Of a DNA stretch of 64,000 bases, positions 5,586 to 58,049 are shown piece after piece. Within the stretch, counting starts at the first letter, position 1, and each line of letters begins with the position of its first letter. The position numbers were made by a program, and so were the translations under genes. The notes under the pieces are model-generated. The model saw only the letters and a program-made list of their open reading frames with translations. It was not told where the DNA came from and made no database searches. The DNA comes from an uncultured Candidatus Binatia bacterium. Lineage in GTDB: Bacteria; Desulfobacterota; Binatia; Bin18. Location of the stretch: positions 635,769 through 699,768 of the forward strand of contig OY282457.1 in assembly GCA_958296235.1 (NCBI GenBank), given 5' to 3'.

Positions 5586-5846
5586 TCAACCTTTCTCGTC
5601 AAGCAGTTTCCGTAGCGCGTCCGTGTGCGCATTGAGGGTAGCTGTCTGCGCATTAAGAGCAGCTGCATTGGCGTTGAGAGTGGCAGCGTTGGCCTTGAGG
5701 TCCTCGGCTATACCATACAGGACCGCAGTATTGGCTTTGCGTTCTTCGTTGCTCAGTTTCATCAGGCTGATGCCCCAGGCGATCAGACCTGTTTGCAAGA
5801 GGCTCACAACGACTTGAGCAATTGATGTCATCTCTACTATCTGCAT
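5586..5846 (-). CDS. Small membrane-anchored coiled-coil protein (hypothetical)
   Basis: 86 aa: N-terminal TM helix IAQVVVSLLQTGLIAWGISLM followed by LNA(N/H/Q)-type heptad repeats. The DNA shows degenerate ~21-nt tandem units (gcgcattgagggtagctgtct ...). Confidence 0.4.
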   Translation of the reverse strand: MQIVEMTSIAQVVVSLLQTGLIAWGISLMKLSNEERKANTAVLYGIAEDLKANAATLNANAAALNAQTATLNAHTDALRKLLDEKG

Positions 5847-5972
5847 AGGGCCTCAGTAAGGAATTTATTCATCCGGGCGAGCCTAGCGCAACGCCGGGCG
5901 CTTGACAAATCAAGTCCGGCGCAGACAGGTGGAGTCATTGACGGCGTAGAGGTACAGACATAAGGCTGAGTC

Positions 5973-6704
5973 ATGAATCGGCGTGTCATCGGCCTCGGTC
6001 TGGGCTGCCTCGTCTGCGTAGCTGCGGTCGGCACCAACGCGGCCCCGGACAGCGATATCGAGCGCAGCGGCAGCATAAGCGGACAGGTCGTCTTTGCCGG
6101 CAGCGCTCCGCGGCAAGGCAGCCTGCCCGTCCACAAAAACAAAGCAGTCTGCGGAGCAAGCACTCCTGACGAGAGTCTTCTTATCGATACTCACGGCGGA
6201 CTCAAGAATGTCGCTGTCATCCTTGACGGCATTGACGCCGGCAAAGGCCGCCCGGCCCCGCCCGCGCAACTGGACAACAAAGACTGCGCCTTTGTCCCCC
6301 GCGTCCAAACCATGACCGTCGGGCAAACCCTCATCCTTCGGAACAGCGACTTCATCCTGCATAATGTCCATGCTCGCCGCAATGGCTACAAGACCGTGTT
6401 CAACCTGGGCCTGCCGCACTGGTCCGAGAAAACCTATCGCTTTGAGCAGCCGGGCCGTATTCGAGTTGACTGTGATGTGCTGCATACCTGGATGCGAGCG
6501 CATATTATTGTTACCGACCATCCTTATACCGCGGTAACGGATGCGGCGGGACAGTTCAGCATCACCCGGATTCCCCAGGGAAAATATGCCCTGCGCTTGT
6601 GGCACGAGCAGCTTGGAGAACAAGCCCAGCCAGTGTCAGTCCGCACGGCCCAGGAGACCCGTGTCCGGCTGACCTATCCAGCCCAGGCGCAAAAGGGACA
6701 CTGA
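5973..6704 (+). CDS. Secreted cupredoxin-like (type-1 copper) protein with carboxypeptidase-regulatory-like beta-sandwich segments
   Basis: Signal peptide MNRRVIGLGLGCLVCVAAVG. Candidate T1-Cu ligands are His in FILHNVH and C-x3-H-x2-M in VDCDVLHTWM. C-terminal DAAGQFSITRIPQGKYALRLWHE resembles a CarboxypepD_reg fold. Confidence 0.55.
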   Translation: MNRRVIGLGLGCLVCVAAVGTNAAPDSDIERSGSISGQVVFAGSAPRQGSLPVHKNKAVCGASTPDESLLIDTHGGLKNVAVILDGIDAGKGRPAPPAQLDNKDCAFVPRVQTMTVGQTLILRNSDFILHNVHARRNGYKTVFNLGLPHWSEKTYRFEQPGRIRVDCDVLHTWMRAHIIVTDHPYTAVTDAAGQFSITRIPQGKYALRLWHEQLGEQAQPVSVRTAQETRVRLTYPAQAQKGH

Positions 6705-6705
6705 A

Positions 6706-7041
6706 TCAGTCGATTGCCAGGAAGCGGGACAGCGCATCTTTCACCGCTCTGCCGTCTCGGTGCGACAACGTGCCAACCTTACGCACAATCAGGGCGTCAT
6801 CGAGGGTGAAGAGCTTGAAGCGGACCTTACACGGGGCGTTGAGGCCGGCTTCCCGCCAGCCCTGGATCGCCACGTCGCTCGGCCAACTACCTCCAGTCGA
6901 GGTAATCATGGCCAGGATCGTCTGTTCGTGAGCCTCATTAAAGCTGGCCGATGAGACGATCAGAGCCGGACGGCGCTTGGTGGCTCGTCGGTCTGTGAAA
7001 GGAAAGGGAACGACGACGACATCAAGCGGCTCACAGGTCAC
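6706..7041 (-). CDS. mazF: MazF/PemK-family endoribonuclease toxin
   Basis: 111 aa, VVVPFPFTD...KRRPALIVS hallmark. Overlaps the upstream antitoxin by 11 bp. Confidence 0.8.
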   Translation of the reverse strand: MTCEPLDVVVVPFPFTDRRATKRRPALIVSSASFNEAHEQTILAMITSTGGSWPSDVAIQGWREAGLNAPCKVRFKLFTLDDALIVRKVGTLSHRDGRAVKDALSRFLAID

Positions 7042-7520: not shown

Positions 7521-8216
7521 ATGTCAAACAATCCTGTACATTATGAACTGAACGACGGTATTGCCGTGCTGCGTCTTGACGACGGAAAGGCCAACGCAGT
7601 CAACCATGCGCTGATCCAGGGCGTGAATGATGCTTTGGACAAGGCTGCGCAGGAAGCCAAGGCCGTGGTCTTGACGGGCCGGCCCGGTCGCTTTTCCGCG
7701 GGATTTGATCTTGCGGTCCTCCAGTCCGGTCCAGAGGCCGGCCACACCCTCGTGACTGCCGGCGCGCGGATGCTGCTCAAATTATTTACCCATCCGCAAC
7801 CGGTTGTCGCTGCCAGCACAGGTCACGCTATTGCCGCCGGCGGCTTTATGCTGCTCGCCAGCGATACCCGTTTGGGCGTACAGGGCGATTTCAAAATCGG
7901 ACTCAATGAGGTCGCTATTGGGATGACGCTGCCGGAATTTGGCCTGATGTTCGCGCGTGAGCGGCTGTCCAAGCGTCACTTTACCAACGCAGTGATCCAA
8001 GCCCGCTTGTACACGCCAGCCGAGGCAGTTGATGTCGGTTTCCTGGATCGGGTGTGTACGGCTGAAACCCTGTTAGACGAAGCGCTCAGCGAAGCCCGTC
8101 GCCTTACCTCGCTCGACCTGCCATCCTATGGCCGCACGAAGTTACGCTCGCGGAGTGCGCTTGCAGAGCAGATACGCAGCGGTTTGGATGAAGATATCGC
8201 CCGGTTAATGGCCTAG
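7521..8216 (+). CDS. Enoyl-CoA hydratase/isomerase (crotonase) family protein
   Basis: GIAVLRLDDGKANAVN, GRPGRFSAGFDL oxyanion-hole motifs. ATG 7521 preferred over 7488. Confidence 0.8.
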   Translation: MSNNPVHYELNDGIAVLRLDDGKANAVNHALIQGVNDALDKAAQEAKAVVLTGRPGRFSAGFDLAVLQSGPEAGHTLVTAGARMLLKLFTHPQPVVAASTGHAIAAGGFMLLASDTRLGVQGDFKIGLNEVAIGMTLPEFGLMFARERLSKRHFTNAVIQARLYTPAEAVDVGFLDRVCTAETLLDEALSEARRLTSLDLPSYGRTKLRSRSALAEQIRSGLDEDIARLMA

Positions 8217-8240
8217 GGGAGTCGAATTGCCGAGGCAGAA

Positions 8241-8386
8241 TTCCCCTGCCCTCTTAAGGCGTGTGCTGCCCATTGTGTCGCCGGCCCCCCAAGCGGTCCG
8301 TCGGCCCCCTCACCCGGCCCTTCGACAGGCTCAGGGCCACCCTCTCCCTCCAGGGGAGAGGGAAAGGCAGGAGGCCCGCTCCCGCG
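8241..8386. repeat. REP-like element, family B copy 1
   Basis: Shares cgtgtgctgcccattgtgtcgccggcccc ... ctcacccggcccttcgacaggctcagggccaccctctcc ... aggggagagggaaag ... gcccgctcccgc with 48008-48152. Confidence 0.6.
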
Positions 8387-8400
8387 ACCTGCTCAAAGGA

Positions 8401-9915
8401 CTACTTCGCCAACTGACCCGTGGCGTGACCGTTCGGCCTCGTTTCGACTGTCCTCTCCGACAGAATCGCTGCCGCGGCCTCTTCGACCGCCGTGCCTTTG
8501 AAAAAGTCGGGGTTGGCCTCGCCCCAGAAGCGGACTGGATTGGTACACATAAAGTCACGGAACCCAATGTCGCTGACCAGGCCTTTTTCAACCAATTCGT
8601 ACGCTTCGGGCACCACCTGGTTCATGTTTGCTACGTCAAAGTGGCCGATGTCCGAGCCGAAGAGCGCGTTGAGCTGCGCCCCAAACGGATTGCAGTGACG
8701 ATTGAAGGCCCAGGCGTTCATCTTGTCGTCCGACTCACAGCCGAAGTAGAAATTCTTGACAAACAAGTCGTGGATGTCCGCCGCCTGGGTGATCGCGCAG
8801 GCCGAAAAATCGTCCAGGTTGTCAATGCCGCCGACGGCTGTTGAGCCTTGTGCACTCAGCACTGTGTCCAAGGCCGCCTCGCGCTGCTTGAACGCCTCAG
8901 CCATGTCTGCGCTGCCATATTTCAGCGCCAGTTCGCTCAGCAGTCGCTGGTCGAGATTGGCGGGATCAACCTCCGCCAACGCCGCGCGATTCCGCTTCTC
9001 CCAATGTTCAATCAAGTCGGCGTACAACTGACACGCCCAGCCGACTCCCCCCTCCAGAAAGGCGAATTTGAGCGTGGGGAAACGCCGCGTCACGCCACCA
9101 AGAAAGAGGGCTTTACACACGGCTTCGTTTGCCGCGGCAAAATGGCCAACGTGGTTGTACACAAAATTGGAGGGCGAAATCCGTAGCGCATAGCCACGCG
9201 AGCCGGTATGAAACGTCGGCGACAGGCCACGCTCAACGCACATTTCCCAGACCGGGTCGTAGTCGTATGCGCTGTCCAGACCCAGCACGTCGCGCCACGT
9301 CAGCAGTTCTTCCGTACCGGGGTATTGCTCGACCGCGGCGGGAATGGGCCGTTTAATCATGCTGCCCAGCATGATGACCTTCATCCCGAGCTGCGCAGTC
9401 ACATAGTCGATTTCTTCCAGGGCCTCTTCGGGCGTGTGCATCGGAATAACCGCGGTCGGGGTCATGCGGTCGGCATAGGCCCGAAAATAGTCTGCGCTAA
9501 AGATATTAAACGCCCGGCAGGCGGCTTTCCGCAGTTCGGTATCACTGCCGCGGGTCAACCCCAGACCCGCGGTGGGATAGAGGATGGTAAAATCTATGCC
9601 GAACTCGTCCAGGCGTTCATACAGCAACCTGGGCAGCATGGCCGTTGCCCGGTCGCGCGTATTCTTGGTGGGAATCCCCCAAAAGGCTTGCTGCGCGGTC
9701 CGCTGGCGGCGGCGTTCCGCCACTGACAGGCTTAAGTGCTCTTGGACAAGTTTGGTGAACACCGAGAAACCTTCGACTGCCTTGTCGCCGCCAATTTTTC
9801 TCAACTGTTCGCGCACCAGCGGCCCAAACTCCAGCCAGTGTCCGTCCGCGTCTATAATCGGATGCTGCAATCGGGCGCGTATACCCGCTCCGTTCGTCTG
9901 ACCAGTGCTGCTCAT
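8401..9915 (-). CDS. Amidohydrolase-2 family metal-dependent hydrolase (ACMSD/LigI-like TIM barrel)
   Basis: Real start is MSSTGQTNGAG...IIDADGHWLEF (ATG at 9913-9915). The ORF-track N-terminal extension to 10161 only translates REP copy A2. C-terminal EGTNIPSPREGEG is also REP-derived, so the 3' end may be shorter. Confidence 0.7.
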   Translation of the reverse strand: MSSTGQTNGAGIRARLQHPIIDADGHWLEFGPLVREQLRKIGGDKAVEGFSVFTKLVQEHLSLSVAERRRQRTAQQAFWGIPTKNTRDRATAMLPRLLYERLDEFGIDFTILYPTAGLGLTRGSDTELRKAACRAFNIFSADYFRAYADRMTPTAVIPMHTPEEALEEIDYVTAQLGMKVIMLGSMIKRPIPAAVEQYPGTEELLTWRDVLGLDSAYDYDPVWEMCVERGLSPTFHTGSRGYALRISPSNFVYNHVGHFAAANEAVCKALFLGGVTRRFPTLKFAFLEGGVGWACQLYADLIEHWEKRNRAALAEVDPANLDQRLLSELALKYGSADMAEAFKQREAALDTVLSAQGSTAVGGIDNLDDFSACAITQAADIHDLFVKNFYFGCESDDKMNAWAFNRHCNPFGAQLNALFGSDIGHFDVANMNQVVPEAYELVEKGLVSDIGFRDFMCTNPVRFWGEANPDFFKGTAVEEAAAAILSERTVETRPNGHATGQLAK

Positions 9916-35216: not shown

Positions 35217-36086
35217 TTACTTTGCCTTGTATTTGTAGGCAAGGCGTAAGAGTTCTTTGAGGATTTCGGCGCTGGAATGGATGTCGTCCTCCTTCAATTG
35301 AAGACGATAGCGGCGGCCCTTGTACTTAAGCGTAGTAAACCCAGCGTTCTCTATTTTCTCGTCAAGTTCGTCGGTACGTGGCAATTTAATCCTGACGGTG
35401 ATCTTATCTTTCAGCGGCTTGAACCACACAAAATTGTAAGGTCGGCCGTCCTTCTCGATGCCGATGTACTGTTTGTTGTATTTCAGGCTCAGGCTTGAGT
35501 CGATTTCACGCATGATATCTAGCATTTGGTCGGCCAAGGCGACGGTCTTCGTCGCGCGCTTCTCCCAATAAGCCCGGTCGGTCGGCGCGGCCTGGGCAGC
35601 CTCATCGTCGTCATCGACGAGGCCACGTTCCAACTCATCCATCACCTTGGTGAACACGACAGTCATATTTTCGCCGACCTGAACCGCCTGCATCTGGATG
35701 GCGATCAGCGGAAGTGCGCCGTTGAAAAGCGATATGACGTTAAAAAAGCGGCTCGTAATATCTTCCGCAACGATCACTGCGCAGTGGTCGTACTGCGGGT
35801 AATGCCTTTTCTCGATGTCCCAGTACTCAATTGTCCTGATGATGTGCGACTCGTCTGTTGCCCCGAGCTGAATTTCAACCTCGTATCGCCGCGCCGTCTC
35901 GGTGTCCTCAAGTAGTAGGTCAAGCCTTCCTGCGTGAGGCTGTCTCCGTTCCCTGTCCCGCAGGAACAGATCGCCTAATCCGAGAACTGATGGATCGTCC
36001 TCGATGAGATTCTGGATCCATCTCTCTTTCAAGGTCGGATGCTTTTTAAGAGAGAAGGGTTCCGGTTTCAGATAGTTGTTATTCAT
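35217..36086 (-). CDS. Hypothetical protein with PD-(D/E)xK-like nuclease core plus a conserved C-terminal domain, inserted between hyuB and hyuA
   Basis: GRLDLLLED ... YEVEIQLG resembles D...(D/E)xK. C-terminal YIGIEKDGRPYNFVWFKPLKDKITVRIKL...TLKYKGRRYRLQL block. By eye, GC is lower than the neighbours. Start ATG 36086 (MNNNYLK). ORF-track start 36191 would overlap hyuB. Confidence 0.5.
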   Translation of the reverse strand: MNNNYLKPEPFSLKKHPTLKERWIQNLIEDDPSVLGLGDLFLRDRERRQPHAGRLDLLLEDTETARRYEVEIQLGATDESHIIRTIEYWDIEKRHYPQYDHCAVIVAEDITSRFFNVISLFNGALPLIAIQMQAVQVGENMTVVFTKVMDELERGLVDDDDEAAQAAPTDRAYWEKRATKTVALADQMLDIMREIDSSLSLKYNKQYIGIEKDGRPYNFVWFKPLKDKITVRIKLPRTDELDEKIENAGFTTLKYKGRRYRLQLKEDDIHSSAEILKELLRLAYKYKAK

Positions 36087-36206
36087 TACACCAGCCCTAC
36101 TTCCCAGCTGCGAGTTTGCACAGGGCAAGGTTGGCGGTTTCGTATTCAGACATGCTGCGTTTCCTTCTGGCGTCTTGCCGGCTTCTTTCACCGCTGACTG
36201 CGCCGT

Positions 36207-37931
36207 TCATTTTCCGACCGCGAGTTTGCGCGGCTCGTCCGCTTCGACCCGGACGCCGTACTCTTCCCAGGCGGCCTGGACGGACACGAAGCCGTTGCGT
36301 ACGTCTTCGAGCACCTTGGCCCGGTCGCGTTCACGCGGGTCGCCCACGCCGCCGCCGCCGGGGTTCTGGTTGGCGAAACGCTCGCCCGGCTCGATTTCGG
36401 CGATCCGGTTGGTCTTGATCTCCTCGATATTGCCGTCTTTCTTGTAATACAGCGCCCGTCCCACCTTGGGTTCGCACAGCGTCGAGGCCGCGCCGAGCGC
36501 GCCCTGGGCCGGGTAGCGCCGTCCTTCGCCAAACATGACAACCGTCATGGGGTCGTGGAGCGGTTCGACTTCCCAGTGCGTGCCCGAGCCGCCGCGCAGT
36601 TTCCCGGCCCCGCCCGAGTCCGTCATCAGGCCGTAGCGGTGAATGATAATCGGATATTGGTATTCAAGAATTTCAATATCGCCGCTTGTTAAGGCGCCAA
36701 AACAGCACTGCGGACCCACGGCCGGCCAGCCGTCCGTCTTATGCGAGGCGCCGCCACCGCTGATAATCGTCGCCAGGATCATGGACACGTATTCTTCGCC
36801 CGAGCGGTAATCCTGCCCGGCAATATTCAGTCCGTTTGAATGTCCCCAGGAAGCCACCGCCTTTTCGGGCAGGGCTTGTTCGAGCGCCATACGCACAGCA
36901 TCCGTAATCGACTCTGACGGGGTGGTTGTACAGTTGGCGTGCGGCGCCGGTTCCTGGGCGTTGGTAAGGGTGCCTTCCGGGCCGACATCAACACTAATAG
37001 GCCGATACAGCCCCTCGTTATACGGCGGGGGCAGTTGGGCGAACATCATCACCCCGAGATACACCCCGGACAGCGAGTTGGCCGCATAGGAATTGATGAA
37101 ATACGGAATCTGGGGCGGGCTCGCCAGCGCAACGGCCATAGTGTCGCCAGCGACCTCAACGGTCGCCGCAATCTCGATATCACCATAGCCATGCCCAGCG
37201 TCTTCGAGCACGGATTTCCCGTGATAGGTTCCGTCAGGAATAGCGCGGATAAATGCCCGCATCTGGTGTTCGGCCAATTCGAGCAATTCCGCCATACAGG
37301 CCATGACCATATCTTTGCCGTATTTCTCCAGCAGACCGAGCAGGTTGCGTTCGCCAATTGTGACCGCGGCAAGCTGGGCGCGCATATCGCCGGCCTGGAG
37401 TCGGCGGGAGCGGACATTGGTCAGAATAAAATTCACCACATCGCGTCGCTCTGTTCCGCGGTCCCGTATTTTCAGCGGCGGAATACGCAGGCCCTCGGCA
37501 TAAATCTCTTTGGCCTCGGGGTTATAGCCGGCGGGCACCGGGCCGCCGATGTCGGTGACATGGCCTTTGCTGACCGTCCAGAACACGAGTTCGTCCTGGT
37601 AGAAGACCGGCTTGTACATGCAGCAGTCAACAATATGGGAGCCGCTCCAGGCCGGATCGTTATGATAGAACACATCACCGGGATGGATATCGTCACCGAA
37701 ATAGCCGGCAACAGTCCGCAGGGCCGGCATGAGGGAGCCTAGATGAATAGGGATATCCTGGCCTTGCAGAATCATCTCGCCGGAGCCGAGAAACAGGGCG
37801 TTGGAGTAATCGCGCGCAATATTAAAAACGGACGAGCGCGATGTTTTCTCAATGGTCAGCGTCATCTCACGCTGGGTTGATTCAAGCATGCCCTGGACAA
37901 CGGCCAGGGTAATGGGGTCGGTCTTTGCCAT
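36207..37931 (-). CDS. hyuB: Hydantoinase B/oxoprolinase (HyuB family)
   Basis: 574 aa, MAKTDPITLAVVQGMLEST... Confidence 0.85.
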   Translation of the reverse strand: MAKTDPITLAVVQGMLESTQREMTLTIEKTSRSSVFNIARDYSNALFLGSGEMILQGQDIPIHLGSLMPALRTVAGYFGDDIHPGDVFYHNDPAWSGSHIVDCCMYKPVFYQDELVFWTVSKGHVTDIGGPVPAGYNPEAKEIYAEGLRIPPLKIRDRGTERRDVVNFILTNVRSRRLQAGDMRAQLAAVTIGERNLLGLLEKYGKDMVMACMAELLELAEHQMRAFIRAIPDGTYHGKSVLEDAGHGYGDIEIAATVEVAGDTMAVALASPPQIPYFINSYAANSLSGVYLGVMMFAQLPPPYNEGLYRPISVDVGPEGTLTNAQEPAPHANCTTTPSESITDAVRMALEQALPEKAVASWGHSNGLNIAGQDYRSGEEYVSMILATIISGGGASHKTDGWPAVGPQCCFGALTSGDIEILEYQYPIIIHRYGLMTDSGGAGKLRGGSGTHWEVEPLHDPMTVVMFGEGRRYPAQGALGAASTLCEPKVGRALYYKKDGNIEEIKTNRIAEIEPGERFANQNPGGGGVGDPRERDRAKVLEDVRNGFVSVQAAWEEYGVRVEADEPRKLAVGK

Positions 37932-57156: not shown

Positions 57157-57465
57157 ATGGGAGAGATGCAGCAGGTACAGGACCCGCGCACGGAGAGACT
57201 AAAATCGATACTCGCTTCTCAGGACATACCGCATATCTACGCAAACGGGTTTACAAACGCGTTCAGTAATGCCGACGTTATCATGGTGCTGGAACGCAAT
57301 AACTCTCCGGTCGCCGTCCTGAATATGTCTTACATAACGGCAAAATCCTTAGCCCATGACCTTTCCCGACTCATTGCCGACTTTGAAAAGAAAAGTGGGC
57401 AAGCCATCATGACCACAGATATTGTGGATAGAGTCCTCTCGCAGCAGACCGAAGGTCAGTCATGA
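57157..57465 (+). CDS. DUF3467-like small protein (hypothetical)
   Basis: 102 aa. IYANGFTNAFSNADVIMVL ... VLNMSYITAKSLAHDLSRLIADFEKKSGQ fits the DUF3467 pattern recalled from memory. GAGGAGG RBS. AT-richer region. Confidence 0.45.
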   Translation: MGEMQQVQDPRTERLKSILASQDIPHIYANGFTNAFSNADVIMVLERNNSPVAVLNMSYITAKSLAHDLSRLIADFEKKSGQAIMTTDIVDRVLSQQTEGQS

Positions 57466-58049
57466 AATACACTGTGGGACATTCTCAGTCCCTCTCCTTT
57501 GCTTTCGATCTTTCTCCCGACCCGCTGCTGGCAAAACTCCAAGAGTTGGCAGACCTGCCAGACGGATGGCGATTTGGGGAAGGAGTTCCGCCCCGGCCAC
57601 AGGCGCTCGACAGGGCGCGGGAAATTCACCGACAGGCTGCTTCCCTCCGGCTCAAGGCTGACGCATTCCCAAGTGCAGACGGGTCCGTGAACTTGGTTTT
57701 TTACGCCGGCGAGAGGTGTGTCGAGATTTATGTGTCTCAGACTGGAACAATCAACGTCAGCGTAGAAGAAGGAGAGGGGTTTGATTTCCGGGAAATCAAG
57801 GAAATATCAAATGCCTCGATTACCGACGCGGTAGAAGAAGTGAATTTTCTTGCTCAGAAGTCAGACATATGGAACTTATTAGACTCCTTCATCCACGAGA
57901 GTACGATAAGCATTCAAAGCGCTTCCGCAGTTCATGTTTCACCAACTCCAGCGACGGGACAGGAATATCACTTGTTGATCTTGAATGCGTCCGAGAGCAC
58001 TGTACGCCCATATGTCAACACATCGAACGCTATTATCCCGGTGTCGTAG
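57462..58049 (+). CDS. Hypothetical protein (195 aa), translationally coupled to the DUF3467-like gene
   Basis: ATGA overlap with the upstream gene. GAAGG RBS. No recognisable domain. Confidence 0.4.
   Translation: MKYTVGHSQSLSFAFDLSPDPLLAKLQELADLPDGWRFGEGVPPRPQALDRAREIHRQAASLRLKADAFPSADGSVNLVFYAGERCVEIYVSQTGTINVSVEEGEGFDFREIKEISNASITDAVEEVNFLAQKSDIWNLLDSFIHESTISIQSASAVHVSPTPATGQEYHLLILNASESTVRPYVNTSNAIIPVS

Follow-up and report, generated by a model that had tools for sequence, protein, structure and literature searches.

Gene X, the subject of this analysis, is a solitary gene inserted between hyuB and hyuA, the genes for the B and A subunits of a hydantoinase/oxoprolinase, in an uncultured Candidatus Binatia bacterium (contig OY282457.1). 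We analyzed it within a stretch of 64,000 nucleotides (nt) of this contig (positions 635,769 to 699,768), which we call the window and to whose first letter the window positions below refer. With a probability of roughly 0.5, X might encode a stand-alone DNA endonuclease that was acquired horizontally, is under diversifying selection, and probably serves in defence or against mobile genetic elements (MGEs). We infer the defence role from the mosaic, fast-changing alleles of X, a modest number of restriction-modification genes next to its relatives, and a distant similarity to candidate defence proteins in the PADLOC collection.

An open reading frame (ORF) of about 290 amino acids (aa) had been noticed between hyuB and hyuA in an initial annotation made from the DNA letters, and this size holds. 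The six-frame ORF list gives 324 codons with a GTG start (35217-36191, minus strand); translation truly begins at the ATG at 36086 and yields 289 aa, and more than 100 homologues of 290–293 aa align from this Met. The annotation also had the ORF filling the gap exactly. This is true of the hyuA side only, where 7 nt (AGGACCT) separate the X stop from the hyuA ATG at 35209, whereas the X ATG lies 120 nt from the hyuB stop. The two flanking genes are normally adjacent, as had been supposed: a metagenome scan with HyuB retrieved 36 loci, and all of those that also hold hyuA (~27) have hyuB directly followed by hyuA, without X. The occupied sites are six, namely the window and the loci L001, L002, L003 (a Candidatus Binatia metagenome-assembled genome, MAG), L121, and L122; the flanks of L001 are 98–100% identical to the window DNA and those of the other four ~88–92%. 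Among the empty sites, L084 encodes HyuB and HyuA proteins 96% and 94% identical to those of the window. With p-distances of 0.083–0.099 to each X-bearing genome, it is as close to them as they are to each other (0.099–0.111), and 2 nt separate the end of its hyuB from the start of hyuA. Because ~27 sites are empty, including the close L084, X was gained, and possibly lost again, within a group differing by at most 11% at hyuBA. The horizontal insertion into an operon proposed in the initial annotation is thereby supported. Relatives with the same gene at the same position had been named there as a sign of an ancestral operon member; five genomes do carry X at this site, so that the insertion is not recent, but the empty sites show that X is not ancestral to the operon.

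Neither a convincing promoter nor a convincing terminator turned up inside hyuB-X-hyuA in a simple scan, whose counts were no higher than in shuffled sequence; X is therefore probably read together with the operon. One could imagine X as an accessory subunit or regulator of the hydantoinase/oxoprolinase-type enzyme, as it lies inside the operon in the same orientation, apparently without signals of its own, and is kept in six genomes. This is highly improbable, because X is missing from the ~27 related hyuBA loci, for which reason we rejected it as a hydantoinase subunit; in addition, it adjoins unrelated genes in 77 other species and has the fold of a nuclease joined to a DNA-binding domain.

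The alleles of X at this site differ far more than their surroundings. Between the window and L001, hyuB and hyuA have a synonymous divergence (dS) of 0.06 and a nonsynonymous divergence (dN) of 0.002–0.004, whereas the N-terminal half of X reaches a dS of 0.17 and a dN of 0.041, and the C-terminal half 0.36 and 0.22. DNA identity, taken in 90-nt bins, is 98–100% in the flanks of this pair and 69–89% in X over window positions 35745-35300, with 69–85% in the block of aa 223–268. Between L001 and L003 or L121, the flanks are ~90% identical and the C-terminal part of X 96–100%; between L003 and L121, the flanks are 97–100% identical, the N-terminal part 81–91%, and the C-terminal part 99–100%. 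At the protein level, the six alleles make up three C-domain types: type A in L001, L003, and L121, with L122 at 83%; type B in the window, which is 60–66% identical to the other five and at most 69% to any other retrieved protein; and type C in L002. For aa 223–268, dN and dS are 0.36 and 0.33 between the window and L003 and 0.34 and 0.34 between the window and L001, compared with a dN/dS of 0.02–0.09 for hyuA and hyuB. Whole X copies at the hyuBA site are only 70–77% identical, versus 92–99.8% for the flanks. The X alleles are thus mosaics, in which segments have been exchanged between lineages, presumably via the conserved hyuA and hyuB arms, and in which the C-terminal domain changes fastest; old alleles persist at hyuBA. 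Such a pattern is expected under diversifying selection, as in immunity or specificity genes. No silent C-domain cassettes or X paralogues were found in the 64-kb window.

The AlphaFold2 model of X from an alignment of 71 sequences is a confident two-domain structure with a predicted local distance difference test score (pLDDT) of 92.8; it replaced a first model from a shallow alignment of 27 sequences (pLDDT 68.7). Structure prediction and fold search identified the alpha-beta-beta-beta-alpha-beta core of PD-(D/E)xK nucleases in the N-terminal domain. This bears out the restriction-endonuclease-like core that the initial annotation had recognized from the motifs GRLDLLLED and EVEIQ, which are nearly invariant across the family. 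The basic C-terminal domain is beta-rich, as had been suspected, and resembles solved double-wing domains in the fold search, with matches to YjbR, DUF419, and the C-terminal domain (CTD) of MotA; the guess of a DUF5655-type fold was thus a good one. In Pfam, the only match of the window protein is to DUF5655 (PF18899; 22.0 bits, E-value 1.7e-4, aa 173–284 against profile positions 4–106 of 109), 2 bits below the gathering threshold of 24 bits, and there is no NucS match; 22 of the 71 homologues match DUF5655, the best at 8.8e-9. Searches of X against NCBIfam and, with the single sequence and a profile, against the PDB sequences gave no match, nor did Pfam searches with ten relatives of atypical length. 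The linker between the domains is a site of indels between alleles. The candidate active site consists of E21 on helix 1, D56 on strand 2, and E71-x-Q73 on strand 3, plus the invariant E108. The catalytic triad suggested for inspection thus has E21, D56, and E71 on the expected elements, each kept in 69–70 of the 71 sequences, but lacks the Lys, which is replaced by Q or M. Compared with other families of the double-wing fold, such as DUF5655, MmcQ/YjbR (PF04237), and the C-terminal domain of T4 MotA, the domain of X is fused to a nuclease and evolves fast; its DNA binding would follow from the predicted fold, which has been documented as DNA-binding and proposed as a specificity module in nuclease fusions (PMC7641849). 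The features are collected in Table 1.

Table 1. Coordinates of gene X, its predicted domains, and its flanks in the window.
Feature	Position	Strand	Basis or remark
Gene X, solitary two-domain protein, 289 aa	35217..36086	-	Stop codon 35217-35219; ORF list, homologue alignment, AlphaFold model
N-terminal PD-(D/E)xK (NucS-like) nuclease domain (predicted), aa 1-155	35622..36086	-	
Acidic low-confidence linker, aa 156-170, LVDDDDEAAQAAPTD	35577..35621	-	pLDDT 61-71, <50 at residues 157-159
C-terminal DUF5655/'double-wing' (YjbR, MotA-CTD-like) putative DNA-binding domain, aa 171-289	35220..35576	-	
Most variable C-domain block, aa 223-268	35283..35420	-	dN/dS, DNA identity
hyuB, hydantoinase/oxoprolinase B subunit, upstream flank	36207..37931	-	Pfam Hydantoinase_B 1.3e-152
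hyuA, hydantoinase/oxoprolinase A subunit, downstream flank	33101..35209	-	Pfam Hydant_A_N, Hydantoinase_A, Hydant_A_C; junction sequence
hyuB-X spacer, 120 nt	36087..36206	-	Compared with L001, L002, L003 spacers

The family of X is very large, spans many phyla, and has a nuclease domain without a Pfam model. It comprises more than 8000 clusters at 90% identity, of which the top 120 are 65–77% identical to X, and 2065 clusters at 50% identity with an E-value of at most 1e-3. Relatives occur in at least 549 species representatives, including Binatia, Alphaproteobacteria, Nitrospirales, Acidobacteriota, Planctomycetota, Treponema, and the Candidate Phyla Radiation, and their source annotations read only 'hypothetical' or 'predicted transport protein'. 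Their mean identity to X is 67% in the N-terminal domain and 48% in the C-terminal domain. A homologue as close as 77% (P0004) lies in an unrelated genomic context. The gene is solitary, as the initial annotation had it: across 80 loci from 80 species, no neighbouring gene family recurs, no methyltransferase included, and 149 immediate neighbours carry 124 Pfam families. The restriction-type or candidate-defence neighbours are four MmeI-type IIG enzymes, two Mrr proteins, and a few phage-defence candidates (PDCs). Relatives of X are found in 13 of 72,556 plasmid records, several as fragments, in 7 of 2.9 million viral contigs, and in none of 50,697 phage records; none was found in the E. coli genomes. 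In L060 (a Nitrospinota MAG) and L067 (an unclassified MAG), X lies ~30 nt from ORFs of ~650 aa on the same strand on both sides, which form one family by BLAST, probably of the AMP-binding/acetyl-CoA-synthetase type. This is another case of X between related genes, and again X has diverged further (C-half dN 0.24) than its flanks (~90% identical).

Base composition was compared over the 41 ORFs of at least 150 aa in the window. The GC content of X (51.5%) is below that of hyuB (60.0%), hyuA (62.8%), and the mean of the 41 ORFs (59.9%, standard deviation (sd) 3.1), confirming what had been judged by eye. The deficit resides mainly in the first and second codon positions and thus in the amino-acid composition: GC at the second position is 0.32, against ~0.45 in the neighbours, whereas GC at the third position (GC3) is mildly low, with 0.66 for X, 0.71–0.75 for hyuA and hyuB, and a window mean of 0.693 (sd 0.047). 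In the comparison of codon usage proposed earlier, the synonymous-usage score of the ORF as listed (-0.014) is the second lowest of the 41 (mean 0.156, sd 0.079). Because the deficit lies mainly in positions 1 and 2, the AT-richness of X is a weak sign of foreignness in this genome, and we rejected it as proof of recent transfer. Across the family, X is AT-richer than the surrounding locus in 77 of 78 species (loci among L001–L082), by 10 GC points on average. Its GC3 is below that of the neighbouring genes in 67 of these species, and its GC content correlates only moderately with that of the host (r ~0.58). This family-wide AT bias is the mark of a mobile gene.

The best structural match of X is the C-terminal nuclease domain of NucS/EndoMS (PDB 2vld, 5gke), which raises the question whether X is a cellular repair or recombination nuclease, acting on a DNA structure or lesion in functional analogy to NucS/EndoMS and being neither immune nor selfish. 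The N-terminal domain is extremely conserved across phyla, the neighbours of X are mostly housekeeping genes, and X has stayed at one locus across a flank divergence of dS ~0.4, all of which would suit such an enzyme. The resemblance to NucS, however, amounts to 17–20% identity over ~115 residues and comes with the reversed domain order: in NucS/EndoMS the nuclease follows an N-terminal DNA-binding domain, whereas in X the nuclease is N-terminal, the double-wing domain is C-terminal, and the NucS N-domain is absent. Where NucS/EndoMS has a Lys, X has Q or M, and only one of the 71 members matches Pfam NucS_C (E-value 0.077), so that by NucS_C, NucS_N, and architecture X falls outside NucS/EndoMS. 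NucS, a repair gene, is inherited vertically. X, by contrast, has a patchy distribution, is AT-rich nearly everywhere, and is polymorphic: of genomes with at most 11% difference in their hyuBA DNA, some carry it and others lack it. Multiple mosaic alleles and a C-domain dN/dS of ~0.6–1 would also be unusual for a housekeeping repair enzyme. We regard a repair function as quite unlikely.

Free-standing phage homing endonuclease genes sit between conserved genes and show presence/absence polymorphism, and X does likewise. It could accordingly be imagined as a selfish, homing-like free-standing endonuclease gene: its product would cleave the unoccupied hyuB-hyuA junction, or other sites particular to a lineage, repair would copy the gene in, and changes in the C-terminal domain would retarget it. 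Several observations fit this idea: X is placed precisely between two conserved genes and shares their orientation, the spacers being 7–10 nt in L002 and L003; it is present or absent among close relatives, occupies lineage-specific sites in other phyla, and has no partner gene; and a C-domain segment has moved between genomes ~10% apart. Long direct repeats surround X at two loci. In L041 (a Xanthobacteraceae MAG; 5740-7010), 73-nt direct repeats of 82% identity bracket X and ~130 nt of upstream DNA, which holds a hairpin and then a T-run; in L055, an exact 16-nt direct repeat lies 12–27 nt before and 40–55 nt after X. Both score above the maximum of 26 bits in the cross-locus null, and no other locus is alike. 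Apart from these two, no shared flanking DNA element, inverted repeats, or target duplications were detected across ~85 loci, and a transposon-like vehicle for X is not supported. Homing endonucleases leave near-identical copies at their sites, whereas only the C-domain segment of X is shared at 96–100% in divergent hosts; copies of X at the same site diverge more than their flanks, which is the opposite of a recent invasion by a single element, and the alleles are older than the divergence of the hosts. All six copies are intact, with no sign of a decay phase, the genes are chromosomal and nearly absent from phages, viral contigs, and plasmids, and ordinary homologous recombination through the conserved hyuA and hyuB arms explains the mosaics. 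A homing-like element is thus an unlikely account of X.

Comparison with defence systems returns us to the reading of X as a solitary endonuclease in defence. Type II restriction-modification systems have an adjacent cognate methyltransferase; X has none at the window, where the neighbours are hyuA, hyuB, an SDR, an ABC transporter, and a Sel1/FGE-sulfatase protein. The modular enzymes FokI, N.BspD6I, AspBHI, and MspJI, with their separate recognition domains, show no detectable homology to X and use a different recognition domain. The PDCs come from a search by 'guilt by embedding' within defence systems of several genes (Payne et al. 2024, bioRxiv 10.1101/2024.01.29.577857). Among the 71 members of the X family, 17 match PDC-S18 of PADLOC (best 8e-9) and 14 match PDC-S11 (best 1.5e-8), the family members aligning with these hidden Markov models over both domains. 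Both candidates are single-gene proteins of ~300–360 aa, and their genes, like X, lie embedded among those of a larger unit and share its orientation; the host units of the candidates are type I restriction-modification, BREX, and DISARM systems, whereas that of X is the metabolic operon hyuBA. To judge from these matches, X would be a distant relative of the PDC-S11 and PDC-S18 candidates and not a member.

Several points weigh against a nuclease with a defence role. The window protein itself matches PDC-S18 only at an E-value of 0.0021 and PDC-S11 at 0.0093 (13–15 bits). The setting of a defence island is not seen at the window locus, the neighbours across the family are mostly housekeeping genes, and the PDC candidates and restriction enzymes of type IIG or IV among them come to a raw count of ~10 in 149. 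The N-terminal domain is unusually conserved for a protein in an arms race, with ~160 residues nearly invariant among the top hits. The dN/dS of ~1 over 46 codons, which consists of pairwise estimates, fits relaxed constraint as well as positive selection. Finally, the candidate active site is non-canonical, since position 73, where the catalytic Lys is expected, is Q in 59 and M in 12 of the 71 sequences. Such a replacement could mean that the nuclease fold is catalytically dead and that X acts only as a DNA-binding protein, for example, a regulator, a nucleoid-associated protein, or an anti-restriction factor; inactive restriction-endonuclease folds are known, and one of them, Pfam NA-iREase1, is found among the neighbours of X. 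We consider this distinctly unlikely. The conservation of E21, D56, E71, and E108 in 69–71 of the 71 sequences, on the structural elements expected for the fold, would be hard to explain without metal-ion catalysis. ExQ is found in BglII and ExE in BamHI, both active enzymes, and for this reason nuclease activity of X is still plausible by analogy.

Under the defence reading, X would have landed in the hyuB-hyuA junction of one Binatia-like lineage without any connection to hydantoinase chemistry. It would work alone as a DNA endonuclease and, like NucS, probably form a dimer. The conserved N-terminal domain with E21, D56, E71, and E108 would cut DNA, while the fast-changing double-wing domain might pick the target, be it a sequence or a modification of the DNA. 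X might then be a one-gene restriction-like defence or anti-mobile-element factor whose diversity is kept by frequency-dependent selection.

Other small changes are visible at and around the same junction. In L001 (5615-6000), the hyuB-X spacer is 386 nt long and contains an intact ORF of 85 aa with one hydrophobic stretch and no Pfam match. Behind this ORF, and abutting the X ATG, 59 nt repeat the 3' end of hyuB in decayed form (EYGVRIKDKALCKLAVGK, then stop). The window spacer holds an 18-codon remnant ORF at 36097-36153 (MSEYETANLALCKLAAGK, then stop), left by the loss of 266 nt between GCCCT microhomologies; the final 24 nt of this remnant ORF (36097-36120) likewise repeat the 3' end of hyuB in decayed form. 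In L002 and L003, the spacer is 10 nt. Judged from these alignments, the 120-nt spacer would be the relic of a second small insertion. At the empty site L084 (6690-6760), the hyuB tail is 10 codons longer and of unrelated sequence (…EDDTQRDRPYAVRTQEKYLAGK, then stop), and no remnants of X are detectable in it. More distant relatives have spacers of 125–265 nt with palindromic repeats. L121 carries an additional ORF of 88 aa and a PIN-domain gene just after hyuA (8034-8674), a toxin-antitoxin-like insert absent in L122 and L002, and the hyuBA neighbourhood therefore accepts other small insertions too. Elsewhere in the window, the ORF at 29014-32928 (minus strand; 1304 aa) encodes Sel1, PG_binding, two FGE-sulfatase domains, tandem PEGA-like repeats of ~70 aa each, and TonB_C; its L001 orthologue has 1234 aa and the repeat matches in BLAST are offset, so that the number of PEGA-like repeats varies between near-identical genomes. 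An ORF of 195 aa at 57462-58049 (plus strand) ranks last among the 41 in both GC3 (0.549) and synonymous-usage score (-0.109), has no Pfam match, and may be another foreign gene or a non-gene.

PD-(D/E)xK nucleases, double-wing domains, and solitary, embedded candidate-defence genes are each of a known kind, and many comparable candidate defence genes exist. What is new is the documented X family, its presence/absence polymorphism in a metabolic operon, and the shuffling of alleles at the level of domains. We can suggest only tentatively that the X family might be a new, widespread single-gene immune system or self-propagating nuclease, in which a conserved NucS-like domain is steered by a swapped double-wing domain and which is multi-allelic and embedded in ordinary operons. 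Embedding outside defence islands would explain why island-based searches missed the family. If X is inert or a repair enzyme, the locus is a well-documented insertion of a gene into an operon; if it proves to be an active nuclease with a specific target, it stands for a very large uncharacterised family that lives within housekeeping operons and not in defence islands. The hyuBA locus is a natural experiment, with six alleles, three C-domain types, and an empty site in hyuBA backgrounds differing by at most 11%, so that the role of the double-wing domain in setting specificity can be tested directly. As this case illustrates, 'guilt by embedding' may extend beyond defence operons.

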